DNA from: an uncultured Hyphomicrobiales bacterium
Lineage (GTDB): Bacteria; Bacteroidota; Ignavibacteria; Kapaibacteriales; Kapaibacteriaceae
Assembly: GCA_964620125.1 (NCBI GenBank)
Contig: CAZUGQ010000007.1
Coordinates: forward strand, 29,795 to 93,794
DNA length: 64,000 bases
Direction of reading: 5' to 3'
Shown here: positions 3-57,206 of the stretch, piece by piece
Position numbering within the stretch: the stretch's first letter is position 1
How the letters are laid out: each line of letters begins with the position of its first letter
Translations under genes and position numbers: made by a program
The notes under the pieces: model-generated
Told to the model about the DNA's origin: nothing
The model's input: the letters and a program-made list of their open reading frames with translations, nothing else
Databases searched by the model: none

Positions 3-869
3 TTGGATCTTGCCATTCGTATGGCAGGACAATCGCTGGTGGGTACCTATGCTAGGGACTCCATCAACGCTCATGTGCTTTCGACGAAGATCGCGGTGGA
101 CCAGGACGTAACTCTAGCAACACTGGCAAGGCATGTTGGCTGTGACCACATCGTATTTGCCAATGTGAAGCGGTTTGCACGCCTTATCCGTGCAGAAGTT
201 GATGTCGTATACGGTGTGAATTTTGATCTTCGGAAGAAGGGTATTGGGTATGCCTCCATTACCTATGCCCGTGGAGAGAATGAGCTTATTGCCGATCCAG
301 CGATTCTTCTTGCAATGCAACGCGCTCTAGCAAGCGCCCTTACTACGAATCCGAGATTTGATACACTCGAGGCTGAGCTGCGAGCACTGCCTGCACCACT
401 GGTGTCCGTTGGTGGTATTGAGTTCATTAACGACCCTAATCTCGCACCATGGGAAATCTTTAAGCAGCAAATATTGTCGTCCTACGACCTGGCACAAACC
501 ATCGTCACCGCCTTGCAAGAAGTTGATACTTTGACGGTGATCGACATAGAAACTCGCGATTCGATGTATGCTCTGGCAGGCTTGTTATTGATTGAGAACA
601 ATCGGCCGATCTCTGCTCTCGAGATGCGCGTGTTACGTGGTTTCGATGTTGGTATTGTTGTAACTGGCACTCTCGAAAGAAACGGGCAAGGGGCTTTGCT
701 TACGTTATGCAATTCACGTCTTCGAGTGGATGGCACCTTCGATGTAGTGTCTCGTGTCCACGAACAACTAGAAGAAGATAGCAAGGTACAACTCCGCGAA
801 GCTGCATTTGGATGCATCCGCAGACTCTATGGCACCAATCCTACTGCACCACCAGCACAGGGTGACTGA
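3..869 (+). CDS. hypothetical protein, 5'-partial (continues upstream of the window)
   Basis: The ORF is open from the window edge. Its first codon is TTG, shown as M in the track. It is 288 aa, and I recognise no family motif. Confidence 0.4.
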   Translation: MDLAIRMAGQSLVGTYARDSINAHVLSTKIAVDQDVTLATLARHVGCDHIVFANVKRFARLIRAEVDVVYGVNFDLRKKGIGYASITYARGENELIADPAILLAMQRALASALTTNPRFDTLEAELRALPAPLVSVGGIEFINDPNLAPWEIFKQQILSSYDLAQTIVTALQEVDTLTVIDIETRDSMYALAGLLLIENNRPISALEMRVLRGFDVGIVVTGTLERNGQGALLTLCNSRLRVDGTFDVVSRVHEQLEEDSKVQLREAAFGCIRRLYGTNPTAPPAQGD

Positions 870-1698
870 ACCGACCGCCCCGTTGTGTGGTAATCTGTAA
901 TACGTAAAGTCCAGCTGGCAACACATTCACAGGAACCGACACTGTTGACGTTCCGGATGGCACCTGAATTCCAAGCGACCGATACACTACATTGCCGATT
1001 GCATCCACGAGCTCAACATCCAACTCTTCGGAATATGGAGCACGAACCTCAAAACGAACAGCATCATGAGCTGGTTGTGCTCCTACAGTTCTGACCGACG
1101 TTGGTGCCGCAAGTAGGATCATGTTGCGTGGACCACATACGTCAACCACTAGTAGTCCAGGATCATGCAGAATCATCACCGGTTCCTGGCTCCACAGCTC
1201 CGCATTACTAAAGCCGAATGCAGTGCTGTCTGGAATAGCTGGCAGTGCAGTACCCTCCATCACCACGATGGTACCAGGCAAACCAAAGTCTAACCCAAGC
1301 CCCCTCACAAGAACATTCAGCTTGCCATTGGCATAGGTGTGCTCCACTTGTGTACCAGGAAGATTGCCGGAATACACTGTGTCTACATTGTAGTGTAGTG
1401 GCGAAAACGAAACCTGAAAACTGAGAGAATCGGGACGTGCTGCCGTGATATTGTTTTCCCAGTGGATTGGAACAACAACTTTCTCGCCCGCTGCTACCTG
1501 GTATTCATCAATGCGGAGTCCCAACAGATGTTCAGGGGGGGGGGACGTAGGGTAGACCCACACCACGAACACCGATGTCGGTACTTGTGGTACAGCGCCC
1601 AGCTTCCACGAGTGATAAGGTTGTGGTACTGGGGCCCACGAGCGTAGGCTCGAACTGGAGTAGTACGGCAATGGTATCGGCTGGTGGTACCTGGACAC
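841..1698 (-). CDS. C-terminal fragment of a large T9SS-secreted protein, out of frame with 1532..5062 and probably the same gene interrupted at a G10 tract
   Basis: Its C-terminus (...LPAGLYVLQITTQRGGRFSHPVLVVQ) resembles a Por/T9SS C-terminal sorting domain. It overlaps the upstream ORF by 166 nt in a different frame, and the overlap spans a 10-nt homopolymer. Confidence 0.55.
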   Translation of the reverse strand: MSRYHQPIPLPYYSSSSLRSWAPVPQPYHSWKLGAVPQVPTSVFVVWVYPTSPPPEHLLGLRIDEYQVAAGEKVVVPIHWENNITAARPDSLSFQVSFSPLHYNVDTVYSGNLPGTQVEHTYANGKLNVLVRGLGLDFGLPGTIVVMEGTALPAIPDSTAFGFSNAELWSQEPVMILHDPGLLVVDVCGPRNMILLAAPTSVRTVGAQPAHDAVRFEVRAPYSEELDVELVDAIGNVVYRSLGIQVPSGTSTVSVPVNVLPAGLYVLQITTQRGGRFSHPVLVVQ

Positions 1699-4600
1699 CG
1701 ATCACATTGTCCAGCAGCAGCCACCCGGCTGCACTGGCTAATTGAAGATCAAGAATTGTTCGCGCTTCCTCGGTGGGATTAATGATGCGCGCAGCCACCT
1801 GTGTGGATCGTCCAACAACCACGCTGCCAGCATCAACAGGGTCAGGCTCAAGAATCAAGCCTCCGTCAATGCGTTGAGCCGACAGGCGAATGGTGATGCG
1901 ATTGCCGCAAGTCTCGTCAACCAAGGTCATGACGGCTGCAGATGTACCGATAGGCACACGCGATGGATCGCAAGTAACATTCACGGCCACGCTACCAAGG
2001 CCTGCAAGCGTAATGGGCAACCCGCTAACGGTAATCCATGGAGGTAACGCTGAAGCATCAAAGCCAATCGTCACCTCCGAAGTGTCTTTGTTCGTGATAG
2101 TGATAGTCTGAACAACTGGCGGATCGCAGGCACGGACATCAAGGTATTCGAGTGACTGAGGACTAGCAGTCCACGCAGCATAGGCTGCCGAACCAGTTAG
2201 CGGGATATCAACAACGGATCTTGTGCCTGACGATTCTAGCTGCAGAATGGCTTGTGCTTGCCTTTCGACTCTTGGATCGTAGGCAACAACAACCCATTCC
2301 GACGTTCCCTGAGGTAAGGAGAAAGCAGTTGTTGGACGAACCACAGTAAAGGCTGAGGGTACGGGGCTGATCACCGGGGTGTGGAAGGAAGCATCGGTGC
2401 TGTTGGCATGAATCTCCACACTGTCTATTCTAACAGCCGAATCGCATCCAGCATCGAAGTGTAATTCTGGAGTTTTCACCTGAAACTCGTTGCTCAGTGC
2501 CCTAAGGAGTATTTGCGCCGACGCAGTTGCCGCGCATGGACCTGAAAGGGTTACCAGGAGATCCGTTGAATATGTTCTTACGCTTGATGGAGTCCATGAT
2601 ACTGTTACGTCAATGGTTCTTCCAGATGGCAGGGTAACTGGTGGAGCAAAGTTCACAGAGAACTCCGCATCCATCTTTAGTGGTGCGATGCTACCGATGA
2701 CAACCGTTTCCATTCCTCCGTTTCGAATAGTCACTTGTCTCACCAGCGACTGACCTACGCTTACGGAGTCTATCAATGGATTCGGAGAAAGCTCAAGACT
2801 CAAGGATCGAATCTTTGCAGTGACTATCACAGCCACAGCCGTATCGCACGGTGTTATTCGCACGAGGATCGTATCTGAGACTACTCCAGTCCCGGTTGCA
2901 GTCCAGGTAAAACGATTACTCCTGTTCTCGCCACGCAACACTACCCTGGTACCCGACTGCAGATTGTTGATTCTTGCAGAGTTTTCGGTGGTTGTATATC
3001 TGAATAGTGATGGACCTTGATTGGAGATGGTGAAGCTTGTGTCTACAACTTCGCCTTCGCATACTTCTCCCAGATCAATCGCCAGGGGGCTAACGGAAGA
3101 GAGAACACTATTGGAGGTAGCGCGCAGGTTTACGTTCCATGGTTGTACGGAACCTCGTGCCGTTGTGGCATCATCATGATTAATCTGTAGGACGCCCGAA
3201 ACATCGGAGGAAGACGGAGTGACAACGATCAGGATGGTATCCGATTCTCCTGGCAGCACTCGCCATGGTGGTTGAGAACCTGCATTGCGCAGCCCAGTTA
3301 TTTGAAAGCTCTCCGGTGAAAGTCCGAGCACATTCATCGAGTACACCGTTAGGTCCATGTTGCCGGTGTTGGCAAGGGGAATGCGTAGCGTGTCGGACAT
3401 CTCGCATCCAATGGAAGCACTGGCAGTGGTATCTGACCTGATAATCGGCGATAGTCCGTATGCGCGTATTGTAATGTGTGTATCGCGCTGGCAGGGTGCA
3501 AGAGTTACCCGAAACCGAGCCTGCACCCAACCCGTGTCGGCCAGGGTGCCCCCTATAAAGGATTGTGCAACCGGTGGGCCTGCATTGATGATGGTAGGAT
3601 ATTCAGCGGCAAGACTTAGCTGCGTGGAGCCGCTATCGCGTTGTATGTCCACGATTGACTCAAGCGGTGGTGCTGCAGCCGTCCACTCGAGAACACGATT
3701 TATTGGGCTACCCGCTCGATGGTTAAACTGCACCAACGTGTCGGTAGGTTTGGCATTAAATGTTCTACGTTCACCTTCAAGCAGCACTGCCAGGGTGGTA
3801 TCTGGTTCTCGAATTCTGATAACCATCGATGCTTGCCTTCTGCCCGCAGCAAGAGCGCGGTACTCAACGATGACCCTGGTACGTGAGCATGCGGGCAAGG
3901 GGTCAGGGATCACATTTACAACCCTGTACATCCAGGCATGTTCACCCACGAGTTCGATAGACCACGGACTGGAGGAGAAGTTCACGTTGTTCACGTACAC
4001 GGTGTCGTACAGGTTTGAATCTGGGCATGCACCAAGAAACAGCAGAACGGAGTCACTGAGCTCGCGAAGGGGTTTTGCTAGGTAGTAGACGCCTTCTCCA
4101 ACCACCCAACCGGTGCTATCGTTTAGGAAGAAGACATCGTCCATGTGTCTACCATTCAAGCCACAATTTTTCAAGCTCCATTCACTTGCCAACGCTCCGC
4201 CTGTTTCCGTATACCAAACGTTTGCATTGGTACCTACAGCCCATGCCTTTTGATTGGTGATCATGAAAACGCCGAACATGTCGTTACCGGTTTCCACGTG
4301 TGACCATGTTGCTCCATCGTCGTGGCTTACGCGCATTCCCCCGCCTGAGTATCCACCTGATGCGCAATTGCTTGTTGCGCAGCTAACCATAAACGAGTTC
4401 CCAGATCGCGAGATTTCCTCGTGCCATGGTGAGTTGGCACCTGTGTAGGCTTCAACTGACCATGTAGCTCCGCTATCCTGCGACTTCCACAACGTGCCAT
4501 TGCCAGCGGCAAACACCGTACTAGCAGGAAGGTCGGGTTGCCACAGTGGATCGGCAAGATTCGATCGTTTGACACTCGTGTCTTGGTATCGCGTCCACGT

Positions 4601-5062
4601 AGACCCGCCATCAACTGTCCGGTAAAAGTTATTTACGCCACAGCCCCCTCCCGTGAGCCATCCATCGGTTTCCGATCGGAACCAGCCTCCCCAGATGTTT
4701 GTTGGCACGGTATCGAGTGTAAGGCGGGACCAGGTGGCACCACCATCGGTAGACTTGAAAGCGCCACACGGGCCGGAGCAGAATCCGACGGAGGTACTCA
4801 GGAACTGGATGTATTCCAGGTGGCACGCTGAGTCGGTTTGCGCGCCTTGCCAGGTGCGGCCACCATTGGTGGTGCGGATAACGTACCCATGATATCGGTC
4901 GCACGCCCAGCCGTAGTTTTGGTTGCTGGGAAGGAAGAAGATGTCGAGGTAGTATCCTGCGTCATAGGGAGCAGGTATCTGTGCGGGAGCCCATCGCTGC
5001 GAGAGAGCGGGAAGGGTTCCGCACAGAAAGAGTAGAGAGAGGATGGTCCTCTGAACGATCAT
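1532..5062 (-). CDS. large secreted protein with an N-terminal BNR/Ycf48-like beta-propeller followed by repeated Ig-like domains, probably fused with 841..1698 as one T9SS cargo of about 1460 aa
   Basis: Signal peptide MIVQRTILSLLFLCGTLPALSQ. Repeated S-x-D-x-G-x-T-W motifs (TNGGRTW, TDGGATW, VDGGSTW, QDSGATW, HDDGATW) are typical of BNR/sialidase-like propellers. A long beta-rich repeat region follows. The ORF stops directly after the C10 tract (PPP*). Confidence 0.6.
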   Translation of the reverse strand: MIVQRTILSLLFLCGTLPALSQRWAPAQIPAPYDAGYYLDIFFLPSNQNYGWACDRYHGYVIRTTNGGRTWQGAQTDSACHLEYIQFLSTSVGFCSGPCGAFKSTDGGATWSRLTLDTVPTNIWGGWFRSETDGWLTGGGCGVNNFYRTVDGGSTWTRYQDTSVKRSNLADPLWQPDLPASTVFAAGNGTLWKSQDSGATWSVEAYTGANSPWHEEISRSGNSFMVSCATSNCASGGYSGGGMRVSHDDGATWSHVETGNDMFGVFMITNQKAWAVGTNANVWYTETGGALASEWSLKNCGLNGRHMDDVFFLNDSTGWVVGEGVYYLAKPLRELSDSVLLFLGACPDSNLYDTVYVNNVNFSSSPWSIELVGEHAWMYRVVNVIPDPLPACSRTRVIVEYRALAAGRRQASMVIRIREPDTTLAVLLEGERRTFNAKPTDTLVQFNHRAGSPINRVLEWTAAAPPLESIVDIQRDSGSTQLSLAAEYPTIINAGPPVAQSFIGGTLADTGWVQARFRVTLAPCQRDTHITIRAYGLSPIIRSDTTASASIGCEMSDTLRIPLANTGNMDLTVYSMNVLGLSPESFQITGLRNAGSQPPWRVLPGESDTILIVVTPSSSDVSGVLQINHDDATTARGSVQPWNVNLRATSNSVLSSVSPLAIDLGEVCEGEVVDTSFTISNQGPSLFRYTTTENSARINNLQSGTRVVLRGENRSNRFTWTATGTGVVSDTILVRITPCDTAVAVIVTAKIRSLSLELSPNPLIDSVSVGQSLVRQVTIRNGGMETVVIGSIAPLKMDAEFSVNFAPPVTLPSGRTIDVTVSWTPSSVRTYSTDLLVTLSGPCAATASAQILLRALSNEFQVKTPELHFDAGCDSAVRIDSVEIHANSTDASFHTPVISPVPSAFTVVRPTTAFSLPQGTSEWVVVAYDPRVERQAQAILQLESSGTRSVVDIPLTGSAAYAAWTASPQSLEYLDVRACDPPVVQTITITNKDTSEVTIGFDASALPPWITVSGLPITLAGLGSVAVNVTCDPSRVPIGTSAAVMTLVDETCGNRITIRLSAQRIDGGLILEPDPVDAGSVVVGRSTQVAARIINPTEEARTILDLQLASAAGWLLLDNVIGVQVPPADTIAVLLQFEPTLVGPSTTTLSLVEAGRCTTSTDIGVRGVGLPYVPPP
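1535..1544. repeat. G10/C10 homopolymer at the junction of two overlapping ORFs; a +/-1 indel fuses them
   Basis: Read directly: ttca-gggggggggg-acgtag. On the minus strand, frame A reads ...YVPPP*. Frame B reads ...TSPPPEHLLG and continues to the T9SS CTD. Confidence 0.8.
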
Positions 5063-5135: not shown

Positions 5136-5200
5136 GTGCCGGGGACTTATGTGCCGGGTACTCAGCTGGGCTGAGTACCCGGCACATAAGTCCCCGGCAC
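5136..5200. repeat. perfect 31-bp inverted repeat (stem 5136-5166/5170-5200, 3-nt loop); each arm is two tandem 15-bp units of the GTGCCGGG repeat family
   Basis: Left arm gtgccggggacttat|gtgccgggtactcagc. The right arm is its exact reverse complement. It lies between the purA stop and the start of the 1532..5062 gene. The core octamer CCCGGCAC/GTGCCGGG occurs 4 times here. Confidence 0.85.
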
Positions 5201-5207
5201 TATCCTT

Positions 5208-6816
<1,609 letters not shown>

Positions 6817-24590: not shown

Positions 24591-26213
24591 CTACTGTAGC
24601 TGGGCGATCTTTTTCGCCTCGTCGAATAATTCCAAGGACTTCTTGGTTTGAGCATCTATCTGCAGCATCACTGCGGTGTACCCGTTGTTGTTAAAGATGG
24701 CCCGACCTATTTGGGCCTTCACAACGGTCTTGAGGAAACGTTCGTCAAAGGCATATTCGTCTGCCTTCCACTCAATGCTGTCCTGTTTTGCAAAGTCGCG
24801 CATAATGTCCATGTCTGCTTCACTTACAGAGAAGCTTTTCAGGAACTTGGACAAATTCCCTTCATAAGCAGAACGTATTTCACGACCTCGTTGCTTCATA
24901 ATCTGGTCAGCCGTCTTCCAGAAGAGATTTCGTGCACGAAGCTTTCGGGCAAGTAGGCCGATGGTGTCGGACTTAACGATGTAGTCAGGTGTAATACCAC
25001 CACCGCCATATACCGTGCGACCTTTGGAGGTTTTGTACTTGGGCCTCGTATTCACATTGTCGTCCGACACATCTTGCTGGTGTTCGATGTTATCGCCCTC
25101 AGCTCCCTCTTCTCGTCCTTCGCCGCTGTAATAAGCTTCTTTGTCCTTGTATGGACGCTGTATGAGTCTGCCTGAAGGAGTATAGTATCGAGAAACCGTT
25201 AGTCGAATGGCGGATCCATCACCGAGTGGGTACTGGCGTTGTACGAGCCCCTTTCCAAAAGAAGTCTGACCAACAACGATTCCTCGATCAAGGTCTTGCA
25301 CAGCACCTGACACGATTTCGCTTGCTGAAGCTGAACCACCGTTGATCATCACCACCAAGGGAATGTTTTCGAGCTCTCCCATGCTAGTGGCAATCATGTC
25401 TTCGTCGAACTCAGGTCGGCGCCCCTTGGTATATACGATTTTCTTTCCGTCCGCGATAAACTCGTCGGCAATGCGGTATGCTTGATCCAAGTAGCCGCCA
25501 GGATTGCCACGCAAGTCCAACAGCAGTTTTTTCATGCCTTGCGCCCGTAGGTTACGCGCTGCAGTTACAATCTCGTCATGTGTTGTAGCACTAAACCTGT
25601 TGGCAGTGATATACCCAACGTCCGTTCCGTCGATGATAAACGATGCGTCGACTGAATTGAGTGGAATCTTGTCGCGCGTGATGTCGAATGCCAGCAACTC
25701 CTGCTCGCCTGCTCTGCGGATATGAACACGAACCTTAGTACCCTTCGGGCCGCGCAACTTCTTTGGTACGGTGCTGCGGGTAAGGCCTATAGCTGTTGAG
25801 TCGTCAATCCGAACAATCTTGTCGCCAGCAAGAATTCCCAATGCCTCGCTTGGACCACCAGCGATGGGTGATACGATGGTTATGGTATCGTTGATAATGT
25901 CGAACTCTACACCGATACCCTCGAACGAGCCGGAGAATTCCTCCTCTACACGCTCCATTTCCTTGGCGGGTATGTACACCGAGTGCGGATCCAGTTCCTC
26001 GAGCATTCCACGTAGGGCAGCTTCGGTAAGCTTTTGCGTGTCTACTTCCTCAACGTATCCTTTGGCTGCCAAAGAAAGCACCTCACTGAACTTTCGTGCC
26101 TGCTCAAATACGGAATCACCACTTACGGCGGGTTGTACGTAGAACGCCAATCCAATGCCAACGGCAATGGATACGAGAACAAGGGCGGTTAGCCGAGATG
26201 GATTCATCTTCAT
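24591..26213 (-). CDS. ctpA: carboxyl-terminal processing protease (peptidase S41)
   Basis: PDZ region, then LLLDLRGNPGGYL and GGSASASEIVSGA...GQTSFGKGLVQ, which are the S41 catalytic Ser/Lys motifs. Confidence 0.88.
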   Translation of the reverse strand: MKMNPSRLTALVLVSIAVGIGLAFYVQPAVSGDSVFEQARKFSEVLSLAAKGYVEEVDTQKLTEAALRGMLEELDPHSVYIPAKEMERVEEEFSGSFEGIGVEFDIINDTITIVSPIAGGPSEALGILAGDKIVRIDDSTAIGLTRSTVPKKLRGPKGTKVRVHIRRAGEQELLAFDITRDKIPLNSVDASFIIDGTDVGYITANRFSATTHDEIVTAARNLRAQGMKKLLLDLRGNPGGYLDQAYRIADEFIADGKKIVYTKGRRPEFDEDMIATSMGELENIPLVVMINGGSASASEIVSGAVQDLDRGIVVGQTSFGKGLVQRQYPLGDGSAIRLTVSRYYTPSGRLIQRPYKDKEAYYSGEGREEGAEGDNIEHQQDVSDDNVNTRPKYKTSKGRTVYGGGGITPDYIVKSDTIGLLARKLRARNLFWKTADQIMKQRGREIRSAYEGNLSKFLKSFSVSEADMDIMRDFAKQDSIEWKADEYAFDERFLKTVVKAQIGRAIFNNNGYTAVMLQIDAQTKKSLELFDEAKKIAQLQ

Positions 26214-40317: not shown

Positions 40318-41214
40318 TCAGGCAGGATGAGAACCAGGATCGATCAGAGCTAGTCTGCGACCAAGCTCGACACCTTCAATACGTTCGCTATGCTGATAGT
40401 AGAGCACGGCATGGGATATGTAGGTTATGAAGCTTGCGAATACCAAAAGTATGGGGATGGCAATCGCAGCCACACCGGCAAGTATTGGCACAACCGGACC
40501 AAGCTCAGTAGTTGGAAGGATTGAGAGAGTACCAATGGACAGAATAGTTCCTGGTATCATCAGCGACAGCAGTAGTGCTGCCTGCGCCAGCCCAACAACC
40601 AGAATGATGCCAAACGAGTACCACCAACGATCCTTAATCAGAACAAAGACGCGCGATAGCGCTTTGCCTACATCGGCATCTTCTGCAACGACGGTAAATG
40701 CCAGCAACCCGAGCGGCACGGAAAGGTATATACCAGGTAGATAGAAGAACTGTGTTGCAATGTTGATCATGATGGCTGATGCGGCGGCGGCAAAGAATGT
40801 TCGCCAGAAATACTTACCAATCGCTGAGCGGAGCCATTCATAATCAGGATAAGAGCCTTGTTCTGCATAGTGTTTTACCGCAAGGTAAACGATGCACATC
40901 TGCAAGGCAGAGCCAGCTGATAGTGCTATCAATGCTAAGAGCAGACCTATGATAATGCCAGGCAGCGAGGATAGAAATGTGTCCGAATACATAGGCGACC
41001 ACTCATTATTCCCACCATATTGGTCGGCTATCATGCCAAAGAATTCGGAAAACAAGAAGGCCGTTGCAACCGCGCCGATGATAAGCCAGGGAGCACAAAT
41101 GCGAACGGTTGCACGCATCATTGGCTTGAAACCGCTTCTCGCAACCTCGAATATTACTGTGATCGTGTCAGAAAATGACCGAACCTCTCTAAGCCGATAC
41201 TCTTCGATCGCCAT
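40318..41214 (-). CDS. hypothetical polytopic membrane protein in the MoxR cluster
   Basis: About 6-7 TM helices and no soluble domain. Probable start is MAIEEYRL. Confidence 0.5.
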   Translation of the reverse strand: MAIEEYRLREVRSFSDTITVIFEVARSGFKPMMRATVRICAPWLIIGAVATAFLFSEFFGMIADQYGGNNEWSPMYSDTFLSSLPGIIIGLLLALIALSAGSALQMCIVYLAVKHYAEQGSYPDYEWLRSAIGKYFWRTFFAAAASAIMINIATQFFYLPGIYLSVPLGLLAFTVVAEDADVGKALSRVFVLIKDRWWYSFGIILVVGLAQAALLLSLMIPGTILSIGTLSILPTTELGPVVPILAGVAAIAIPILLVFASFITYISHAVLYYQHSERIEGVELGRRLALIDPGSHPA

Positions 41215-42181
41215 TGACAGACCTATTGATGATTGTTCGAGGAAGAACGACAACGTACCAGATAACCAATGCTGCTGAGCCCACGATGATACCAGCATTG
41301 AGCAAGGGTGATAAACCGTAGAGACGAGTAACGAAGCTCTCGAGAACAGCGGCAAGGAACAACAGCGGAACCATACCCAACGCTACGAGCGTTGCCGTTC
41401 GGATGCCACGAATGAAGGCTTCTCTGCGTGGATAGGTGCCCGGATGAAGAACGGCATGAGTAACTCTGATGGCTGCCGCTCCTCCAACAACGATAGAGGA
41501 AAGTTCGAGCGTGCCATGGATCCATATTCCCAGTGTAGCCGTTGCCAACTGATTGTACTGGGCAAAGAGACCATGGAAACAACCAACCATCACGGCATTC
41601 GGGATAAGAAGGTATGCCGCACCAACCACTGGTATCAAGCCGAGACCAACAGATCGAAGAAGGATCATGATATTGTTCAATGCAATGTAGAACAACATCT
41701 CCACGGGATCGGTCCTGCCATACACAGCCAGGGTTTCACCAGACTTGATGTTGGCAATGGTCATGTCTACGTAGAAGTCACCGAGTATGCTTCGAGCCAG
41801 ATCCTCGTTCTGACTGCCAGCAACGAAACCAAGGGTGCATCCAAGTACAAAAACGACTGTAGAGATCAGCAGGTGAGGCCGCACCTCGTACATAGCCTTG
41901 GGAACTTCGTAAAAGCATACCTGCCGCAAGCGGTGCTGCCGCAGCCTTTGGTTCCGGGAGATGGCCTCGTGCACCTTTCTGGACATTGCATTTAAGTACA
42001 ACAACGTTTGTGAACCGGGGAACTGTGCACGGGCAAAGGCAAGGTCGTCCATAAGCTGTACATAGGCTCCGGCCATCTCTTGAGCGTTGCATGCATCCGG
42101 CTTGTTTACAATCTCCTCGAATGCCTTCCATCGCTCTTGATTTTTTCTAATGAACGTCACTTCTCGCATTATTGCTCCCAA
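41189..42181 (-). CDS. SpoIIM-like (stage II sporulation protein M family) membrane protein
   Basis: N-terminal cytoplasmic helix-rich region, then about 5 TM helices. Assigned by its synteny with the RDD, DUF4129, DUF4350, MoxR and DUF58 genes. Confidence 0.5.
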   Translation of the reverse strand: MGAIMREVTFIRKNQERWKAFEEIVNKPDACNAQEMAGAYVQLMDDLAFARAQFPGSQTLLYLNAMSRKVHEAISRNQRLRQHRLRQVCFYEVPKAMYEVRPHLLISTVVFVLGCTLGFVAGSQNEDLARSILGDFYVDMTIANIKSGETLAVYGRTDPVEMLFYIALNNIMILLRSVGLGLIPVVGAAYLLIPNAVMVGCFHGLFAQYNQLATATLGIWIHGTLELSSIVVGGAAAIRVTHAVLHPGTYPRREAFIRGIRTATLVALGMVPLLFLAAVLESFVTRLYGLSPLLNAGIIVGSAALVIWYVVVLPRTIINRSVNGDRRVSA

Positions 42182-42973: not shown

Positions 42974-45346
42974 CTACAAGCGGTACAATAAGCCAAGGTT
43001 GATACCGAATGACTGGAGAGTCCAGTTTACGTCACTAGCCATGGATCCGAATCTCTTTGTGTAGAGAGTCTCCATAAATGCCGATGCTCGGAACGAGATT
43101 GGATAGCTGAATCCAATTCCACCGAGCAGTTCGAACCCAAGAGTGCTTAGGGTAGTGACTGATTGACTACCAACCGGTTGAGAGGTTCCGCCTCCAGGCA
43201 ATTCCCATCCTGTTGGTCGCAGTACTTCGCGTTGTGTTTCAGCAGAATTGCCCAGCGCTACCGCGATGTTAAGACCACCTGTGATGTAGAAGAAACGCTG
43301 CAAAAACCACTGCGCCATACCCCCAAAACGAAGGTATGAGTTTGTGAGAGCAACGGTTGTTGCTTCTTGATAGGGAATGAACTGGCCGCTGGTTAAATCG
43401 AACACCGTCCCGATTGTGGTGTCCGGTGAGATCAACTTTCCGCCAACGCCAGCAACGGACAGGCGTGCCTGTAGGATTACGCTAGGAAGCACGCGCCTAC
43501 CTAACAGTAGGCCGAAGCCCCATCCCGGTCCTTCACTCTCGCCAAATTCGGCTTGACCTGATAGGTCGCCAATGGAGGTAAAGTCTGCTGTATGAACGTA
43601 GTTGGCAAGCGACCCATACGCACCAACGATCCACGTTTCTTCGCCTACGCATTGCACCAAGGGATCATCACTGAGAGAGAACACGTACCGTTCTATCCGG
43701 CTATCAAACACGTAGCATACAGCAAACTGTGATCGGTTTCCCGCCACGTCCAGTGCTTCAAGTACAAGGCGTCCGCTCTTACCGGACACTGCTGGTCGTA
43801 CACGAATGGAAACTTGTGGGGCACCTTGTTCGACCTTTGGGATGTCGGCTTCGAGTGAAACGGTGTTTACGATGTTCACTGCGGCAAGGCCACGATCCAT
43901 AACCCGGTCATCACGCAGCGTCACAACAAAATCGTCTCGTACGTTAGCGGCTTCAGCCATCGGTGGCACTGTATCGACCAATTTGTTCAGTTCCAGAAAA
44001 CTCTGGCCAGCCATGTTGCCATAGGCATCGTAGGCGTCACTCTTGAAGCCAAAGCCATACGAATACAAGCCAAACGGGACTTCGGATCGGATAACGTGGG
44101 TACCGTACGGTATCGGAACCTGAGCAATGGAATATCGGCTTTCACCCAGGACGGTAAAGAGTGTGGAGTCAACTCGACGGCCATTTAACCGAATCTGCCC
44201 AATGCTTTCTGTTGGAGCAACAACGTTGATGTAATGGTGCCAGTCTCCACTTATTGGCGTTGCAAATCGATACTCATTCAGAAACTGCTGAGTAGGACTT
44301 ACAAGAATCATCATTGGATCGCCTACACTATCGCCATTCTTAAAGCCTTGTGCAAACTGCGCCACAAGAACTGGCTTGTCGGCCGTGATCTGAACATGCT
44401 GCTGCGTGTTCAGACTCTCGTAGAATTCACCAGCGTTGAGAACAACGGCAAGTCGACTATTCTCAAACACTCGAGTATTGTTTTCTGAGGCAACAACGCG
44501 AAACGTATAACGTGAACGTTCCTTGAGCATGCCAACATAGTAATGCAATCCCCACGCCGAAACGGGAGGCAATTGTTCAATAAGGTGATTGCACGCCTCT
44601 ACTTTCGGTGGCACGTAGGCACAATTATGTCCGCTAAACACCGATATTTTTTTGTTGGCCACGATGCGAGTTCCTGTAAGGTCGCATTGCCCGATACTTT
44701 CCCATCTGGCTCCAATGCTGTAAACATCACCTTGGCGCAAACGAATCTTGAATGGCTTTCCCGCAGGGCGTCCTGTTGACGTTGTAGCTGTTGGTGTGAT
44801 TTCGACTTCCGTGTCGTTTTCCGTTGCAACAATTGATAGAGCAGAAAGCAGATCGCTGGCCAACTTGGTATACCCAATAGCTCGATACTCGCGGCCGATA
44901 ACAGAGATTGGAAGCCCTACGAAGGCGTCGGTGGTTTGGTATCGACTATTCAGTCCGTACACAGAAATCGCGGTATCGGCTGTAATGTGAACAGCCAGTC
45001 GTTCTGCTGTTTCCAAGGCACGGAGTTGGGCTCGTGCTGGAATCTGAACCGGTACAACGCTGTTTGCCCGCACTTCGATGGTGGACTTATAGCCAATCTC
45101 TTCAATTTCGATTTCTACTTTAGCATCGAAGCTACTTGTAATGAACAGTTGCAAACGCAGAGCTGCACCACGATTCTGAACGTCGGTTCCGGCTGATCGG
45201 AAGTTCTTCATGAAGCATAGCCAGAACTCCTTACCCTCAGAATTTTTGGTGATGTATTCTGGATCACGAGCACTTGTTAGGGATGTGAGGCTCACCATCA
45301 GCAGCAGACTCAACGGTACGAATGCCATGCGGGTGATCATGTTCAC
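42974..45346 (-). CDS. IgGFc-binding-like N-terminal domain protein with a C-terminal beta-barrel-like outer-membrane region
   Basis: Signal peptide. KEFWLCFMKNF and CAYVPPKVEACNHLIEQLPPVSAWG are paralogous to 26310..29324 and 49401..50714. The C-terminal about 250 aa are Gly- and aromatic-rich with alternating hydrophobic residues, ending ...FGINLGLLYRL. Confidence 0.6.
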   Translation of the reverse strand: MNMITRMAFVPLSLLLMVSLTSLTSARDPEYITKNSEGKEFWLCFMKNFRSAGTDVQNRGAALRLQLFITSSFDAKVEIEIEEIGYKSTIEVRANSVVPVQIPARAQLRALETAERLAVHITADTAISVYGLNSRYQTTDAFVGLPISVIGREYRAIGYTKLASDLLSALSIVATENDTEVEITPTATTSTGRPAGKPFKIRLRQGDVYSIGARWESIGQCDLTGTRIVANKKISVFSGHNCAYVPPKVEACNHLIEQLPPVSAWGLHYYVGMLKERSRYTFRVVASENNTRVFENSRLAVVLNAGEFYESLNTQQHVQITADKPVLVAQFAQGFKNGDSVGDPMMILVSPTQQFLNEYRFATPISGDWHHYINVVAPTESIGQIRLNGRRVDSTLFTVLGESRYSIAQVPIPYGTHVIRSEVPFGLYSYGFGFKSDAYDAYGNMAGQSFLELNKLVDTVPPMAEAANVRDDFVVTLRDDRVMDRGLAAVNIVNTVSLEADIPKVEQGAPQVSIRVRPAVSGKSGRLVLEALDVAGNRSQFAVCYVFDSRIERYVFSLSDDPLVQCVGEETWIVGAYGSLANYVHTADFTSIGDLSGQAEFGESEGPGWGFGLLLGRRVLPSVILQARLSVAGVGGKLISPDTTIGTVFDLTSGQFIPYQEATTVALTNSYLRFGGMAQWFLQRFFYITGGLNIAVALGNSAETQREVLRPTGWELPGGGTSQPVGSQSVTTLSTLGFELLGGIGFSYPISFRASAFMETLYTKRFGSMASDVNWTLQSFGINLGLLYRL

Positions 45347-46104
45347 TTAAGCACCATGAAAGGATGCAGGTAGGTGCCTGTTGACGTTTGCAGGGACATG
45401 AGGTAAGAACCCTGAGCCAATTCCCAGGAATTGGCTGCAAAGTCGTAGCTGTTTTCACCGGCACGACCCTGCATTTGTCCTAAATCCAGAATCGTGCGTC
45501 CCTGCATGGTACAAACGGAGAGGTGCACAGGCTGAGCCGACTCCAACATAAAAACGAACGTGCTCTGACTTGAAAACGGATTGGGATAGTTGCCCGTAAA
45601 CCCCTCTGCGGGTGTTGGTATCGCAGGGCTTCCGTCGGCGGTAATGAGACCACTTTGGAATTCGACTGTAGGAACAGGAGTCTTCTCTCTGTCCATCCTG
45701 ATTGGCTGCAAATAGCCGCTGGTGCCCGGTCCATTCAGAAACTCCATCACAAGCATACACACCAATCCATTGGTTGTTGGCTGCACATCCCAACACTCTA
45801 CCGTTAGGCGGCCTCTGGTGCCATCAACAATTGTGTCGGCTCCCACATAAGCCTGAGGACATCGGAATGATGCGTTTGGTCCACCGGTACACCGAACGAA
45901 ACGAATCACATTGGCCGGGTAATCGAACACAAGACGAAGGTGTCCCAGACTGGAGATTGTGCCGGTAACAGGAATCTCCACTATTGACTGCCGTGCGCCC
46001 GACGTAGAGCTTGGCACACTGATCCGCTCCTGAGAATGCGCGGGGTGAACCGCCAGAAGCAGTGAGAGGAGAAGCAGACGTAGGTACGTGGTAACGAGCT
46101 GCAT
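45343..46104 (-). CDS. small secreted protein with a T9SS C-terminal sorting domain
   Basis: Signal peptide. The C-terminus NYPNPFSSQSTFVFMLESAQPVHLSVCTMQGRTILDLGQ...GSYLMSLQTSTGTYLHPFMVLK is a classic Por_Secre_tail. ATGA overlap with the downstream gene. Confidence 0.7.
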   Translation of the reverse strand: MQLVTTYLRLLLLSLLLAVHPAHSQERISVPSSTSGARQSIVEIPVTGTISSLGHLRLVFDYPANVIRFVRCTGGPNASFRCPQAYVGADTIVDGTRGRLTVECWDVQPTTNGLVCMLVMEFLNGPGTSGYLQPIRMDREKTPVPTVEFQSGLITADGSPAIPTPAEGFTGNYPNPFSSQSTFVFMLESAQPVHLSVCTMQGRTILDLGQMQGRAGENSYDFAANSWELAQGSYLMSLQTSTGTYLHPFMVLK

Positions 46105-46133: not shown

Positions 46134-48128
46134 CTAGAACTCTTGGAGTGAAATCACCTCGTATCCGCTCTCTTTGCGTCCAACAACGATGAGTGAATAG
46201 CTATTACCAAGAGGTCCCAGCACGATGGGAAGTGTGTAAACAAGCTTGCGCTGAGTTGCATCGTACACATACATAGATCCTCTGCGGTCACGTTGAAGCA
46301 CGTGTATGGGAGATGCCGTCGCAAAGGCTACGTCGCGTGCGACTACTTCCGAGCTGTCGGGATGTTGTGCATACACAGTATCATACGTCACAGAAACCAG
46401 CGGGAGGTCGAATGTGGCATTAATCACACGTCTATCACTCTGGCCAGGTATCTGGCGAAGAGGGTCGGAGGTAATGTTTACGATTATTTCTTGCGAACCT
46501 TGTTGCGTATAGATCAGCAAGGTTCGCTGACCTTGCAGCGATGCCGCCTGAATGGTAGCACCTGCCGCACTTACCACTGCTGATCCATAGGCAACGCTTG
46601 TGGTTAGAGAATTGCGGTAGAATACGTTACCATTTTCGACCACGGATGCAATCGTTGTATTAACAAAATCTGATGTTGGCGAGCCATTCACGAAGCGGAA
46701 CAGAGCAGCATCCGTCTGTTGTTGGATCGTTCCTGGCTGATCGCGTTCTGCGAGAAGATAGGTGACGGGCAAACCGTCTGGTGTTTCGCCTACAACGAGT
46801 AAGTACGCTTGATCGGGCTGAACCGTACCAACCGAAGCATGGAGGAGAGCCGTCGGGAGTACGGACGTTGTAACCGTGAGGGGCAAGGCGCCTGGCTCGA
46901 TCACTGTCGGATTGCTGATACTGCCATAGGTGAGATCTGCTGCTAACGTTGTACCCGAGCTAACAGATGTAGCACTCGAGGCATCGGTTCGAGCACCGGC
47001 GCTAATCGTTATCTGCCTATTGCGAGGTGCAGCATGAACAGTGCGGATAATTGCCTTTCCGGCAGTGTTGAATAGCACTGGAAGTGGTGGTACGATGATC
47101 ATTGCTTTTGTGTCGCTGCTAGTTGCAATCACTGTATACAAACCTCTCAGTGTGAGCGACGTGCTGTCAGTCGCCGTTCGGCCATCCTGAAACCGAAGCT
47201 CCACGACGTCGGCTTCTTCTTGTTCACACGTAGGAACCGAAGCATAGGCTGAGAGTACGAAAGGTTCGACGTTCGAGGCAACCACCTGCCCAGTTCGCGT
47301 CAAACTCAGTGTTACTGGTGAACCACTCAGGTTGCAAACACGCATGTTTGCATCACGCATGTTCACTGGAAGAAAAGGTCGGTCCGCTGCATTGGTAAAA
47401 TCCGACTCATTCAATAGCATGAATTCAACGTTAGAGTTCCCAGTTGTTCGATGGGCAATAATCGTGTAGGGCGTGTACTGGTCTAGCGTGCACTCAAAGG
47501 TGCCAATTGGAATGGTTTCTCCAAATTGAATCTGCTGAATGCTGAACACCGCAGTACCAGGATTCACTTCTTGGTAGAGTGAAACGCTGCGGTATGATAG
47601 CGGTGTTGCTGTCAGTGGTTTACCATTAGGACACCCTAGGCGTACCTCGAACTGCACCGTTGTATCGGGGAACATGTTTGCCACGCGAACCTGTGCAACG
47701 GGTAGGGTTGTGAGCGAGCGGTTCGCGTTGATAACAACGATCGTATCAAACCTATCCTGGTTGTTTGGTAGCCCGGTGGTAAAAACATCATACACACTTT
47801 GTTGTGCGAATCGTACTCGGTCCGGAGTTGAAAACTCCGTGACTCCACCTGCCAAGATTTGCACGTAACTAGAATCAGCCGGTGCATTCACCGTAGCACT
47901 CATTCTACTAGCGGGCACTACTTCAGTCTGGTAACCAAGTTCCAGGACCATGCGCCTATCGGTGCCATCAGGTACCAAGTTGAGCATTCTAACAACGATT
48001 CTGGCCGAACCCGGTGGTGGATTCACGATGTTAGGATCCTCACTTGCACAGCCGCCAGCCAAGCAGATCATGACAGCAAGAGCGGTTGAAAGTGGGCTTC
48101 GGTACAAGTGTTGCGATTGAGTAGTCAT
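46134..48128 (-). CDS. large hypothetical lipoprotein, first gene of a three-gene surface-protein operon
   Basis: Lipobox LAGGCAS. 664 aa, beta-rich, Thr/Ser/Val-rich. The start codon lies 5 bp from the tandem repeat array. Confidence 0.55.
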   Translation of the reverse strand: MTTQSQHLYRSPLSTALAVMICLAGGCASEDPNIVNPPPGSARIVVRMLNLVPDGTDRRMVLELGYQTEVVPASRMSATVNAPADSSYVQILAGGVTEFSTPDRVRFAQQSVYDVFTTGLPNNQDRFDTIVVINANRSLTTLPVAQVRVANMFPDTTVQFEVRLGCPNGKPLTATPLSYRSVSLYQEVNPGTAVFSIQQIQFGETIPIGTFECTLDQYTPYTIIAHRTTGNSNVEFMLLNESDFTNAADRPFLPVNMRDANMRVCNLSGSPVTLSLTRTGQVVASNVEPFVLSAYASVPTCEQEEADVVELRFQDGRTATDSTSLTLRGLYTVIATSSDTKAMIIVPPLPVLFNTAGKAIIRTVHAAPRNRQITISAGARTDASSATSVSSGTTLAADLTYGSISNPTVIEPGALPLTVTTSVLPTALLHASVGTVQPDQAYLLVVGETPDGLPVTYLLAERDQPGTIQQQTDAALFRFVNGSPTSDFVNTTIASVVENGNVFYRNSLTTSVAYGSAVVSAAGATIQAASLQGQRTLLIYTQQGSQEIIVNITSDPLRQIPGQSDRRVINATFDLPLVSVTYDTVYAQHPDSSEVVARDVAFATASPIHVLQRDRRGSMYVYDATQRKLVYTLPIVLGPLGNSYSLIVVGRKESGYEVISLQEF

Positions 48129-48133: not shown

Positions 48134-48283
48134 GCTATGAACCCGGCACCTATGAACCCGGCACCTATGTTCCCGGCACCTATGTTCCCGGCACCTAAGA
48201 ACCCGGCACCTATGTTCCCGGCACCTATGTTCCCGGCACCTATGTACCCGGCACCTATGTTCCCGGTACATTCGTCCCCGGCA
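48134..48283. repeat. tandem array of about ten 15-bp repeats (consensus CTATGTTCCCGGCAC; minus-strand reading GTGCCGGGAACATAG)
   Basis: Read directly: nine near-perfect units plus one degenerate unit, with variants AA/TT/TA at two positions. It occupies the divergent intergenic region between the lipoprotein operon (-) and prfA (+). Confidence 0.9.
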
Positions 48284-48361
48284 ACGTATGGCAAGTTGCG
48301 ATATTTTTGCCCTTTCATCCCTGCCCAAGCCCCCTTAACCTTTAATGTTGCACACGTTAAC

Positions 48362-49411
48362 GTGGAAGAACGCCTTCAACACCTGCTTGATGAGTTTGCT
48401 GCTGCAGAGCAGGCCTTGAATGATCCCGATGTTGTTACTGATCAACAAAAACTGCGTGATGCATCACGTTTGTACAAGGCTCTGCTACCAGTTGCCGAGG
48501 CCGCTCGTGCATACCTGAAGCTCAACGAACGTTTGCAGGAAGCTCGGGCAATGGCTAATGATCCTGCGCTGGATCGAGAGTTGAGAGACCTTGCATACGA
48601 AGAACTTCATGCCCTTGAAGATCAAAAAGCTGCAGCCGAGGCCGAACTTCTCGTCCTGTTGGTTCCCAAAGATCCAAATGACCTGAAAGATTGCATCGTT
48701 GAAGTTCGAGCGGGTACGGGTGGTGATGAAGCTGCGTTGTTTGCGGGTGACCTGTATCGTATGTACGTACGATTCGCTGAACGGCAAGGATGGGCGGTGG
48801 ATGTAATAGACTTCACGGAAGGTGAGCGCGGTGGCTATAAAGAAATCATCTTCGCCCTAAGTGGAAACGAAGCCTATGGTATGATGAAGTATGAAAGCGG
48901 TGTTCATCGTGTGCAACGAGTACCTGAAACAGAAGCTCAAGGCCGTATCCACACAAGTGCTGCTACAGTAGCCGTGCTGCCAGAGGCAGAAGAAGTCGAC
49001 GTGCAGATAAACGAGAGTGATTTGCGAATCGACATCTTCAGGTCAGGTGGCAAGGGAGGCCAGAATGTGAACAAGGTAGAAACCGCCGTTCGCATTGTTC
49101 ATAACCCATCGGGCATTGTTGTGCAATGCCAGGACGAGAGATCGCAACTCAAGAATAAAGAGAAGGCCATGAAGGTGTTGCGCGCCCGCCTGTACGAAAT
49201 GGAATTGGAAAAGCAACAGTCAGCTGTTGCAGGTTCCCGCAAAGAAATGGTGAGAAGCGGCGACCGTTCCGAGAAGATTCGCACCTATAACTTTCCGCAG
49301 AACCGCGTTACAGACCACCGGCTTGAAGGGGAACACAAGAATCACCAGTTGGATCAAGTCATCAACGGAGACTTAGCTGATTTGATAGCTGCCCTGCGCG
49401 CTACCAACTAG
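48362..49411 (+). CDS. prfA: peptide chain release factor 1
   Basis: PKDPNDLKDCIVEVRAGTGGDEAALFAGDL...RVQRVPETEAQGRIHTSAATVAV...SGGKGGQNVNKVETAVRIVH carries the GGQ motif and the PxT-equivalent (PET). The start is set at the GTG giving MEERLQHLL. The ORF track extends it to 48137 through the repeat array. Confidence 0.88.
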   Translation: MEERLQHLLDEFAAAEQALNDPDVVTDQQKLRDASRLYKALLPVAEAARAYLKLNERLQEARAMANDPALDRELRDLAYEELHALEDQKAAAEAELLVLLVPKDPNDLKDCIVEVRAGTGGDEAALFAGDLYRMYVRFAERQGWAVDVIDFTEGERGGYKEIIFALSGNEAYGMMKYESGVHRVQRVPETEAQGRIHTSAATVAVLPEAEEVDVQINESDLRIDIFRSGGKGGQNVNKVETAVRIVHNPSGIVVQCQDERSQLKNKEKAMKVLRARLYEMELEKQQSAVAGSRKEMVRSGDRSEKIRTYNFPQNRVTDHRLEGEHKNHQLDQVINGDLADLIAALRATN

Positions 49412-54753: not shown

Positions 54754-55131
54754 ATGACCTATCGTATTCTTCTCATCGTTAGTGGCCTTACGATGATGTT
54801 TGCCGTCTATGGCCTGGTGATGACGATCGGTGCACTCGTTGATGAAAGTGATGCATGGATCGGAAATCTTACCCTTGGCGGCACCTTCACAGTGATTTCG
54901 GCTTCCTGCGTGACCATCGGAATGATGATGCGAAAGAAAGTACAGAAACGCCTGGATCAGGAGATTGACCGCGAATTCTTGGATCTCGGATATGTAGAGG
55001 CCTCCTTGTTTGCCAAGGAGGCCGGTGTGAGTCTTGATGATGCTCGGGACCAACTCGATAGGCGTATGCGCGACCTTGGATGGAAGCGCACAGAGTTGGA
55101 AAGCTACAATGCCAGGTATTATCGCTTGTGA
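54754..55131 (+). CDS. small hypothetical membrane protein
   Basis: Two predicted TM helices, then a charged C-terminal tail. 125 aa. Confidence 0.4.
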
Positions 55132-57206
55132 AGCATGATGCTTGCAGTATGGTGTTGAGTCTTGATTAACAACACATAACTGCCGGCAGCTCCTGGCACG
55201 TTCAACGCTGTTATCTCGGAGTTAACCGTTGCTGCAAGGATTTGCCTTCCAAGAAGGTCCATCACAACAACTTCCGAGCCCAGAGCCCCCTTCAACGTGA
55301 CTTGCTGATCGAATGGATTGGGGTAAACGCTTATTCCTAGATCAGACAGGTCAACAACATGGGTAGTGCCAACCAGGAAGTTATCGGACCATCGGGTGCA
55401 GCCCCTGCTGTCGGTGATGAGTACGCGATAATTACCTTCACCTTGAATCTCGATGGTTTGGCTGGTAGCTCCCGCAATTGGCCTGCCTTCGCGATACCAC
55501 TGGTACACCACATCCGGTACGGAGCAGCCAAGGAAATTTCCAACCTTACTGATCTCTGGCTCCGGTGCTCCAGGCATAACAACAATGGTAATGGTATCGC
55601 TATTACCCAAACAACCATAGTTGTCTACGATCTGAACATACACGGAATGTGTGCCTTCCTCCAGTGTATTCATATTCAGAACAGGTCGAATCGGCGTTTG
55701 GCGAGACTGGCCGTCAACAAACCAAGTGTATTCGATGTAGCCACCTGGTGCACGTACAACGGTGTCTGCACCATAACACACTTCGATGGTATCAAGCTTG
55801 GGTATCAAGGCTGTGTTTGGACCACATTCGAGTGCTGCTACAAACGCATCTGTAAATCGCTCGCCCTTAACAAGCTGATCATCGAACCATGCTTCGGTAT
55901 CGAACGTGCCACTGAAGTACGTTACGCCCGAAGCATCAACCACCACACTCCTTCCTACGTCATCGTGGATGCCCCCGGCTGATCGAGCCCACTCTACATC
56001 TCCATTCGGAAATGTGCGGATGATGAAGATATCGCTGCCACCATTGGAGTTCACAGTTGTGCCACCAAAGGTTGCGGTTGAGTCAAACGAACCAGTTATG
56101 TAAATGGCACCACGACTGTCGGAAGTCACAGCCATACCAGTCTCAGCATACCCACCACCATAATTGCGAAGAAGGTCAATGTCGCCAGACTTCGTAAACC
56201 TGCACAGGAATACGTCACTATATACCCCACCATTGGCACTGAGCGTCGTAGCATCAAACATGGTTGCGCCGTGCATTGCCCCAGTCACAAGGAGCTTTCC
56301 GGTTGCGTCGGCAAAACAGCTTATCTGATCATCCTTTTCTCCATAACCGATGCGCCTCAGCCACTCATAACCACCATTTGCGTCCAACGCCCAAACAAAC
56401 AAATCCTGCTTTCCCGAAAAGCTCTGGATTGGTTGAAGTCCGCCAAACTCTACACTGCCCGTAAACACACCAGCCACATAAACGCGGTCACCGTTTGGGC
56501 TCACAGCAACGTCACGTGCCATGTCCAAACTGGAGCTACCGGCTGACTTCACCCACACAACGTCGCCAGACGGGGAGATCTTGGCTACGTATATATCTGA
56601 CTCACCATCAGACGTAATGCTCTTCGTACCAAAGGTGGCAGTAGAGCCAAAGCCCCCTGCCAGATATACGTTGCCAACGGAGTCCACGGCCACATGTGGT
56701 GGTGACTCATCGTAATCCGTTGCTCCAAAGACTTTAACCCACTGCAGCACACCCATCTTATCGAACTTGGCAACGAAGATGTCGATGGTGAACTCTTCAA
56801 TCGTCACGATGTTCTGTCCACCAATCACTGCAACGTCGTCAAAGTTGCCTGCGATGTAATAGTTGCCTTTGTTGTCAACAGCAATGGACCGAGTTTCATC
56901 GGAGAAAAAGCCGCCATAGGCGTCCCACGCTATGGGACGTCCCGCACCGTTGAAACGAACAGAAAATCCATCATAGGAGCCTATACCTCCCAACGTGGCA
57001 CTATCTATGTGCACGGAGTCGGAGAAGATGCCCAGAACATGAATATGGCCATCCGGCCCAATTCCCATGTCGAGGCCTTCGTCGAAGCTCTTCCCAGTAA
57101 TGGTCTTGATCCACTGAAACCGAGGCTGACTCTGCATGATGCCCGAAGCACATACCATGACGAGTGCAGTTAGTACAATGGCTCTTGCGATGTTGCTATT
57201 CTTCAT
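55119..57206 (-). CDS. SBBP beta-propeller-repeat protein with a T9SS C-terminal sorting domain
   Basis: Signal peptide. Repeated motifs ...GNxYxAGxF...FVAKxxxxG...W.. (SBBP-like). The C-terminus ...VYPNPFDQQVTLKGALGSEVVVMDLLGRQI...[21 protein letters not shown] is a Por_Secre_tail. Confidence 0.7.
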   Translation of the reverse strand: MKNSNIARAIVLTALVMVCASGIMQSQPRFQWIKTITGKSFDEGLDMGIGPDGHIHVLGIFSDSVHIDSATLGGIGSYDGFSVRFNGAGRPIAWDAYGGFFSDETRSIAVDNKGNYYIAGNFDDVAVIGGQNIVTIEEFTIDIFVAKFDKMGVLQWVKVFGATDYDESPPHVAVDSVGNVYLAGGFGSTATFGTKSITSDGESDIYVAKISPSGDVVWVKSAGSSSLDMARDVAVSPNGDRVYVAGVFTGSVEFGGLQPIQSFSGKQDLFVWALDANGGYEWLRRIGYGEKDDQISCFADATGKLLVTGAMHGATMFDATTLSANGGVYSDVFLCRFTKSGDIDLLRNYGGGYAETGMAVTSDSRGAIYITGSFDSTATFGGTTVNSNGGSDIFIIRTFPNGDVEWARSAGGIHDDVGRSVVVDASGVTYFSGTFDTEAWFDDQLVKGERFTDAFVAALECGPNTALIPKLDTIEVCYGADTVVRAPGGYIEYTWFVDGQSRQTPIRPVLNMNTLEEGTHSVYVQIVDNYGCLGNSDTITIVVMPGAPEPEISKVGNFLGCSVPDVVYQWYREGRPIAGATSQTIEIQGEGNYRVLITDSRGCTRWSDNFLVGTTHVVDLSDLGISVYPNPFDQQVTLKGALGSEVVVMDLLGRQILAATVNSEITALNVPGAAGSYVLLIKTQHHTASIMLHKR

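Follow-up and report, generated by a model that had tools for sequence, protein, structure and literature searches.

A 15-nucleotide repeat module forms a perfect palindrome behind purA and a tandem array beside prfA in a Kapabacteria-like genome

The DNA analyzed here (hereafter the window) is a 64-kb stretch of a metagenome-assembled contig from a bacterium of the FCB group; database matches to its PurA point to Kapabacteria/Ignavibacteria-like members of that group. Comparison of about 45 open reading frames of the window with Pfam gave housekeeping, regulatory, surface-protein and unassigned genes, with no transposase domain among them. Toward one end, on the minus strand, lies purA (5208..6476), which encodes a 422-residue adenylosuccinate synthetase (Pfam PF00709, E = 3e-183); a database protein, P0001, is 100% identical to this PurA. 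From secD through secF and a STAS gene to purA, neighboring genes either overlap or have 29 nt between them, and the Bacteroidota-type -7 motif TANNTTTG precedes secD (9912-9919, minus strand) as well as prfA, with no match to it between purA and the following giant gene in a motif scan. Because of this tight spacing and the missing -7 box, the palindrome described below probably sits inside a secD-secF-STAS-purA-giant-gene operon, in its only sizeable spacer. Across the window TANNTTTG is depleted (10 copies, 25.7 expected), and about half of its copies stand in the right orientation just before gene starts, namely those of secD, 21949.., 24591..26213, 41189..42181 and prfA.

The gene that follows purA encodes a large secreted BNR/ASH-Ig protein and extends over 841..5062 on the minus strand, as two open reading frames (1532..5062 and 841..1698). 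The T9SS sorting domain (TIGR04183) resides in the second of these, so that the earlier description of a giant T9SS gene is correct for the interrupted gene 841..5062 but not for the frame 1532..5062 itself, which has no such domain. A 1407-residue homolog from a relative matches frame -3 over 5059..1535 and continues in frame -1 over 1539..844; since its alignment spans both frames, they represent one T9SS gene with a frameshift near 1535-1539. The split could be due to a pseudogene, a sequencing error or recoding, and in one relative (L120) the giant gene is likewise split, into 415 and 894 residues. Where relatives have their conserved giant-gene start (GTTATGTTC...), the window reads ATG TTC CTC TGA, so that a stop codon follows in frame behind the third codon. 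This leaves the overlapping ATG (5062) as the usable start, equivalent to the second Met in the protein of the relatives. All lineages retain a short motif, GTTATGTT, where the ancestral start codon lies.

Between purA and the giant gene lies a perfect palindrome of 65 nt (5136..5200, no strand assigned). Its two arms (5136-5166 and 5170-5200) are 31 nt each and 100% complementary, and they enclose a 3-nt loop (TGG, 5167-5169), exactly as an earlier note on this DNA had described. The palindrome reads GTGCCGGGGACTTAT GTGCCGGGTACTCAGC tgg GCTGAGTACCCGGCAC ATAAGTCCCCGGCAC, with its left end joined as ...actgg to GTGCC... and its right end as ...GGCAC to tatcc. Each arm is built from two 15/16-nt units, GTGCCGGGGACTTAT and GTGCCGGGTACTCAGC, around the core GTGCCGGG, giving four units in all, two in one direction (5136-5150 and 5151-5166) and two inverted (5170-5185 and 5186-5200). 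The two units of one arm differ at 4 positions, yet the pairing from arm to arm is perfect. No other perfect stem longer than 13 bp occurs in the 64 kb, the next two being 13 and 12 bp, and an origin by chance (roughly 64000 x 4^-31) is excluded. The perfection of the arms is compatible with a recent origin as well as with selection for pairing. The palindrome starts 8 nt past the purA stop codon (5208-5210) and is therefore first of all a purA 3' element; ATG 5062 of the giant gene is 73 nt away, one less than the 74 nt given before.

As RNA, the hairpin alone has a predicted folding energy of -67.8 kcal/mol, and in its sequence context it reaches a z-score of -12. Two hairpins followed by T-runs provide an internal standard for the terminators of this organism: one with a 13-bp perfect stem (52952-52986, -21.7 kcal/mol, then TTTTGTTG) and one with a 12-bp perfect stem (58972-58996, -18.2 kcal/mol, then TTTATTTTG). 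The palindrome stem is three times as stable as either. On the sense strand, no U-run follows the palindrome, where the tail reads CCAGTACGAAATTG, and a terminator scan of 4900-5400 found nothing; nor did Rfam covariance models give any match at gathering score over the whole window. The palindrome is not an ordinary intrinsic terminator, because it has no U-run, whereas the two canonical terminators of the window each have one. Both the missing U-run and the excess stem length had been recognized in the earlier note, whose fallback suggestion, that the element is simply the purA terminator, is unlikely for a canonical terminator, given also that relatives have no hairpin there. A functional, selected terminator or attenuator of purA, of a U-tract-less, 'I-shaped' type that would insulate the giant gene from purA transcription, would agree with the start 8 nt past the stop codon and with the very stable hairpin. 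However, the organism uses hairpins with U-runs for termination, relatives lack a hairpin at the same position, no -7 promoter box lies between the palindrome and the giant gene, and the link to the array family described below would be left unexplained; we regard such a selected terminator as distinctly unlikely.

The second locus lies 43 kb away, in the spacer from which a DUF4397 lipoprotein gene (46134..48128, minus strand; 664 residues, with an LAGGC lipobox) and prfA (48362..49411, plus strand) diverge; the latter encodes a 349-residue RF1 with Pfam PCRF and RF-1 domains and has a GTG start. This start at 48362 fits the length of RF1 in relatives (346-354 residues). A database version of the lipoprotein, P0121 (630 residues), is 34 residues shorter than the open reading frame and is without the signal peptide that its homologs keep. 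One of three IgGFc_binding (PF17517) paralogs in the window (26310-29465, 42974-45346 and 49401-50768) comes after the genes for the DUF4397 lipoprotein and for a small protein with a T9SS tail (45343..46104), a gene set that is kept in relatives. Upstream of prfA, alignment with relatives and the TANNTTTG scan delineate a conserved promoter block (CGGCAACG.A.GGCAAGTTGCGATATTTT.G; 48285..48314, plus strand), with a Bacteroidota-type -7 box, TATTTTTG, at 48302-48309.

A tandem array of 10 units of 15 nt (48135..48284, minus strand) fills this spacer, beginning at the edge of the promoter block and ending 6 nt (rather than the 5 nt stated earlier) from the lipoprotein ATG at 48128. Both repeat elements thus do stand upstream of minus-strand genes, as had been noted. 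Read on the minus strand, the units are TTGCCGGGGACGAAT, GTACCGGGAACATAG and then eight copies of GTGCCGGG(TA/AA/TT)C(A/T)TAG; the two degenerate units are those on the prfA side, and the units at the edges are the most diverged. Tandem Repeats Finder (TRF) reports a higher-order period of 45 nt with 94% matches, compared with 91% for the 15-nt period. The first unit reuses a TTGCCG of the ancestral promoter block. The copy number comes from a metagenome assembly and may be wrong. Owing to the array, the leader or promoter region of the lipoprotein gene is longer by 135 nt, and the array RNA folds weakly (z = -2.7 and -0.2).

The array is open in two reading frames per strand, and an open reading frame on the plus strand (48137-49411) begins within it (MNPAPMNPAPMFPAP...) in frame with prfA. 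Gene callers could therefore lengthen RF1 by about 75 spurious residues. Translations of the open frames, compared with a protein database to find mis-annotated frames over other copies, had no match there, probably owing to low-complexity filtering. A coding repeat was rejected as an explanation: every unit carries an in-frame TAG in the VPG frame, and the sequence is absent in relatives.

The two loci are connected by the core and the spacing that they have in common. In 64 kb, GTGCCGGG occurs 12 times, with 4 copies in the palindrome, 8 in the array and none elsewhere; shuffled sequences hold 2.44 copies on average, and 0 of 100 shuffles reach 12. The relationship that the earlier note saw between palindrome and array is borne out by this distribution, although the 12-13 of 15 matching positions it quoted is the upper end of the range: individual palindrome and array units agree at 10-13 of 15 positions. 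Against the array consensus GTGCCGGGWWCWTAG, the palindrome units show 2 and 1 mismatches. Because the 8-nt core and the 15-nt phase are common to both elements and the 64 kb hold no further copies, we assign palindrome and array to one repeat family with a 15-nt module, GTGCCGGGnnCnnAn, where the label of an interspersed family refers to two loci within 64 kb.

Among 185,579 species genomes, the loose pattern GTGCCGGGNNCNNANGTGCCGGG matched at least 119 loci; the matches listed are either fortuitous or coding repeats of VPGxx type from GC-rich Actinobacteria, and the source genome is not among them. With the tighter pattern GTGCCGGGNWCWNANGTGCCGGG, a metagenome scan returned 24 loci, none of them identifiable as a relative, as composition or sequence context differs, and a scan of viral sequences for the repeat gave no matches. 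Further repeats were noticed in other genomes and contigs. In a Kiritimatiellaeota metagenome-assembled genome from termite gut (L092, 1380-1430 and 6040-6420), 15-nt units, GTGCCGGGAGCGCAA, are clustered in tandem in what looks like intergenic DNA; they occur in both orientations and adjoin a repeated hairpin, GCAGGGCTTCCGCCCTGC. This combination of tandem and inverted copies is analogous but comes from an unrelated phylum, and the 8-nt core it shares with our repeat is forced by the search pattern. On three JGI metagenome contigs with a GC content of 0.55 (L127, 2400-2560; L138, 880-1312; L142, 1150-1200), GTGCCGGGGTCA(C/G) is followed by GTCTGACATTAAGACACGAGCTCTGCGATGATCCGGCATCTTG, and this repeat recurs in the same context on several contigs, which looks like a larger interspersed element. 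A further termite-gut contig (L141, 1840-2050; GC 0.44) holds two arrays of GTGCCGGGCACTGAA with 4-5 units each, 132 nt apart inside a higher-order repeat, which would give a VPGTE pentapeptide if coding.

The order secD-secF-(STAS)-purA-giant gene is kept in four related lineages, which have neither the palindrome nor the core. In relatives whose PurA is 83%, 82% and 80% identical, the spacers between purA and the giant gene measure 81, 146 and 56 nt, and all three are free of the core, of the palindrome and of perfect hairpins with 12 bp or more; the 81-nt spacer folds like its shuffles (z = -0.5). Subtraction of the 65 nt of the palindrome brings the spacer of the window to about the length of this 81-nt spacer. 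The divergent prfA/lipoprotein pair is likewise kept in two relatives (lipoproteins 61% and 57% identical), where the 30-nt block GAAAATATCGCAaCTTGCCGTTCGTTGCCG is followed by 15 nt and then the ATG. In the window, 150 nt separate the same block from the ATG, which corresponds to exactly 9 extra 15-nt units. Because the syntenic spacers of relatives hold neither element, both are recent lineage-specific insertions or expansions in conserved spacers. The contig of the relative with the closest PurA (L153, 86%) stops 10 nt past the purA stop codon; these final 10 nt (1390-1399, TGCTCTGATG) do not match the repeat family, and the contig end could be an assembly break at a repeat.

This comparison bears directly on the proposal of the earlier note that the two elements are a shared cis-regulatory site tying together the expression of surface-protein loci. 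In such a scheme, a protein binding GTGCCGGG would co-regulate the giant T9SS protein and the DUF4397 lipoprotein. Both loci do lie upstream of minus-strand genes for exported proteins; GTGCCGGG is contained in a partial dyad, GTnCCnGGnAC, of which units with AAC, TAC or GAC carry 8 of 11 positions; and the promoter block beside the array has two core-like TTGCCG motifs. However, the sites are absent at the syntenic loci of every relative examined, where the genes and the promoter block are conserved. Relatives that have the same gene pairs without both elements imply that the genes function without the repeat. Moreover, five or more other genes for secreted or T9SS proteins in the window have no such motif upstream, including those for the IgGFc_binding paralogs, an SBBP protein (55119..57206) and the T9SS-tailed protein (45343..46104). 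The geometry also differs between the loci: behind purA the element is a hairpin past a stop codon, and in the prfA spacer it is a direct array that abuts a start codon and the promoter block. Ten tandem sites on the one hand and a 65-nt perfect hairpin on the other would be unusual operators for one regulator, and protein binding does not need perfect complementarity at non-core positions. Hence, a surface-protein regulon is not supported, and we consider co-regulation through these sites very unlikely.

Given that the contig is metagenome-assembled and that short-read assemblies often mis-size tandem arrays, an assembly or sequencing artifact, such as a chimeric inverted join or a collapsed or expanded repeat, has to be weighed as well. 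The palindrome, however, is internal, only 65 nt long and set between unique flanks within a conserved gene order, and its units belong to a family that is seen independently 43 kb away, which makes an artifact highly improbable. An origin from a SMRTbell or other adapter was rejected, as the palindrome is, we presume, unlike the SMRTbell adapter sequence. Three further candidates were set aside: the two loci are not the ends of a 43-kb mobile element, as the genes flanking both are syntenic in relatives; an integron attC site would come with core sites, of which there are none, and purA is no cassette; and an invertible promoter is incompatible with a 3-nt loop, which cannot invert.

Short intergenic repeats of other bacteria offer several points of comparison. 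Our repeat is like the REP, BIME and REPIN elements of Proteobacteria and other phyla (PMC3733652, PMC3116915, PMC3337134) in being short, intergenic, lineage-specific and placed, as these often are, on the 3' side of a gene or inside an operon, and in forming inverted dimers as long hairpins and tandem clusters; the effects proposed for these elements include protection of mRNA 3' ends and attenuation. REP elements occur as singletons, inverted dimers and tandem clusters and are candidates for mRNA stabilization and termination, according to PMC3733652. The REP unit is a 20-40-bp imperfect palindrome with a stem of 6-13 bp and a loop of 2-5 nt (PMC3733652). Unlike it, the 15-nt unit has at most a 4-bp mini-stem (GTGC-CGG-GTAC), and this in some units only; neither the GTAG nor the CGTC tag that marks REPs is present at the ends of the palindrome or of the regular units, with CGTC found within the array only inside the degenerate end unit. 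The hairpin, moreover, is perfect with a 31-bp stem, and no RAYT is seen in the 64 kb. REPs and REPINs are spread in many copies through the extragenic space of a genome, and the 64 kb show two loci; a genome with REPINs also has a cognate RAYT (Y1 transposase) gene, usually with the repeats on its flanks, and the roughly 45 window frames compared with Pfam include no transposase domain. The inverted pair of copies whose pairing makes the REPIN hairpin is, in contrast, present in the palindrome. A MITE has terminal inverted repeats, a target-site duplication and a related autonomous insertion sequence; here the whole palindrome is the inverted repeat, no direct repeat is visible by eye in its flanks (...tactgg, tatcct...), and the window contains no insertion sequence that could serve as the related autonomous element of a MITE. 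The dispersed REP/MITE-like repeat proposed earlier is a fair description of behavior, with membership among REPs or MITEs not supported by the features compared here.

These likenesses would allow for a REPIN-like mobile element, in which the palindrome is the transposable form, copied as a single-stranded hairpin, and the array is a cluster of half-sites; the copying would be done by a transposase from elsewhere in the genome, either a tyrosine (RAYT-like) enzyme in single copy or one of another kind. An intergenic, lineage-specific inverted doublet with a long hairpin, in both tandem and inverted arrangement, combines traits of REPINs and BIMEs (PMC3733652), and the same module is found at two unlinked sites. 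Against this, the 15-nt unit forms no stem-loop and has neither of the two tags (GTAG, CGTC), the perfect stem far exceeds the 6-13 bp of REP stems, the Y1 transposase is absent from the 64 kb, in which one palindromic copy is seen, and the 45-nt higher-order structure of the array suggests slippage over repeated insertion. We thus hold this reading to be unlikely. A more speculative variant, for which the probability seems lower still, is that the 15-mer is the module of an undescribed REPIN-like mobile system in Kapabacteria. Here, a single-strand-specific enzyme recognizing GTGCCGGG would copy the element and would prefer core-like targets, of which the ancestral TTGCCG at the array site would be an example, and the transposable form would be a perfect hairpin with two tandem modules per arm.

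The array in turn resembles minisatellites. Intergenic minisatellites and VNTR arrays grow by slippage, develop higher-order periods and differ between close lineages; mycobacterial MIRUs are 40-100 bp long, and cyanobacterial STRRs are arrays of 7-bp heptamers. Like MIRUs and STRRs, our repeat places short units head to tail in spacers that separate genes or lie inside operons, with the same unit family at several loci; unlike either, its units are of 15 nt, and we know of no perfect inverted doublets for MIRUs or STRRs. A last comparison is with the DNA uptake sequences of Neisseria (DUS) and Pasteurellaceae (USS), which occur about once per kb, also inside genes, and whose inverted pairs form terminators. 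An 8-10-nt core that forms a hairpin as an inverted pair right behind a gene is reminiscent of these sequences, but the phasing of the units at 15 nt, the 10-unit direct array and the confinement of the core to two loci in 64 kb are not. A DUS/USS element was rejected, as the core is not dispersed, with 0 copies in the other roughly 63.8 kb. Overall, the repeat is of an ordinary intergenic kind, short and lineage-specific, with REP/REPIN-like and minisatellite-like behavior.

We favor, with moderate confidence, a young lineage-specific repeat with two copies that grew by slippage and fold-back and that most likely acts at the level of RNA, not as a conserved regulatory site. The 15-nt module GTGCCGGGnnCnnAn would have reached two intergenic spacers of a conserved housekeeping region. 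At the prfA/lipoprotein spacer, between the conserved promoter block and the lipoprotein ATG, it would then have expanded in place to 10 units by replication slippage or unequal exchange; the 45-nt period and the first unit reusing TTGCCG are both typical of such in-place growth, and the stronger divergence of the edge units speaks for it as well. Behind purA, a two-unit copy may have been duplicated in inverted orientation, giving the palindrome with its 31-bp stem. That the arms pair without a mismatch, in spite of 4 differences between the two units of each arm, is most readily accounted for by a single fold-back or template-switch duplication. As a speculation, the palindromic CAGCTG at the center could have primed the fold-back. 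Neither a mobilizing enzyme in the window nor a target-site duplication for the module was found. The array could also have arisen by local growth from the ancestral TTGCCG, in which case the origin of the purA copy would be unexplained.

Once transcribed, the hairpin after the purA stop codon could serve as a REP-like barrier to 3'-5' exonucleases and thereby protect the upstream purA mRNA. In addition, its stem could be a substrate of RNase III, which would uncouple purA from the downstream giant gene. RNase III needs roughly two helical turns; the 31 perfect pairs exceed this need, so that cleavage uncoupling the two genes is plausible.

No new regulatory principle is revealed and no surface-protein regulon is defined by the repeat. 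The coupling of purA to the gene for the large T9SS protein may be changed by the hairpin, and for annotation the array lets gene callers extend prfA by 75 codons. If our preferred reading of a young repeat holds, the two loci would provide a clean example of a short repeat invading conserved housekeeping spacers in a poorly studied phylum, and of one module yielding both a minisatellite and a perfect hairpin.
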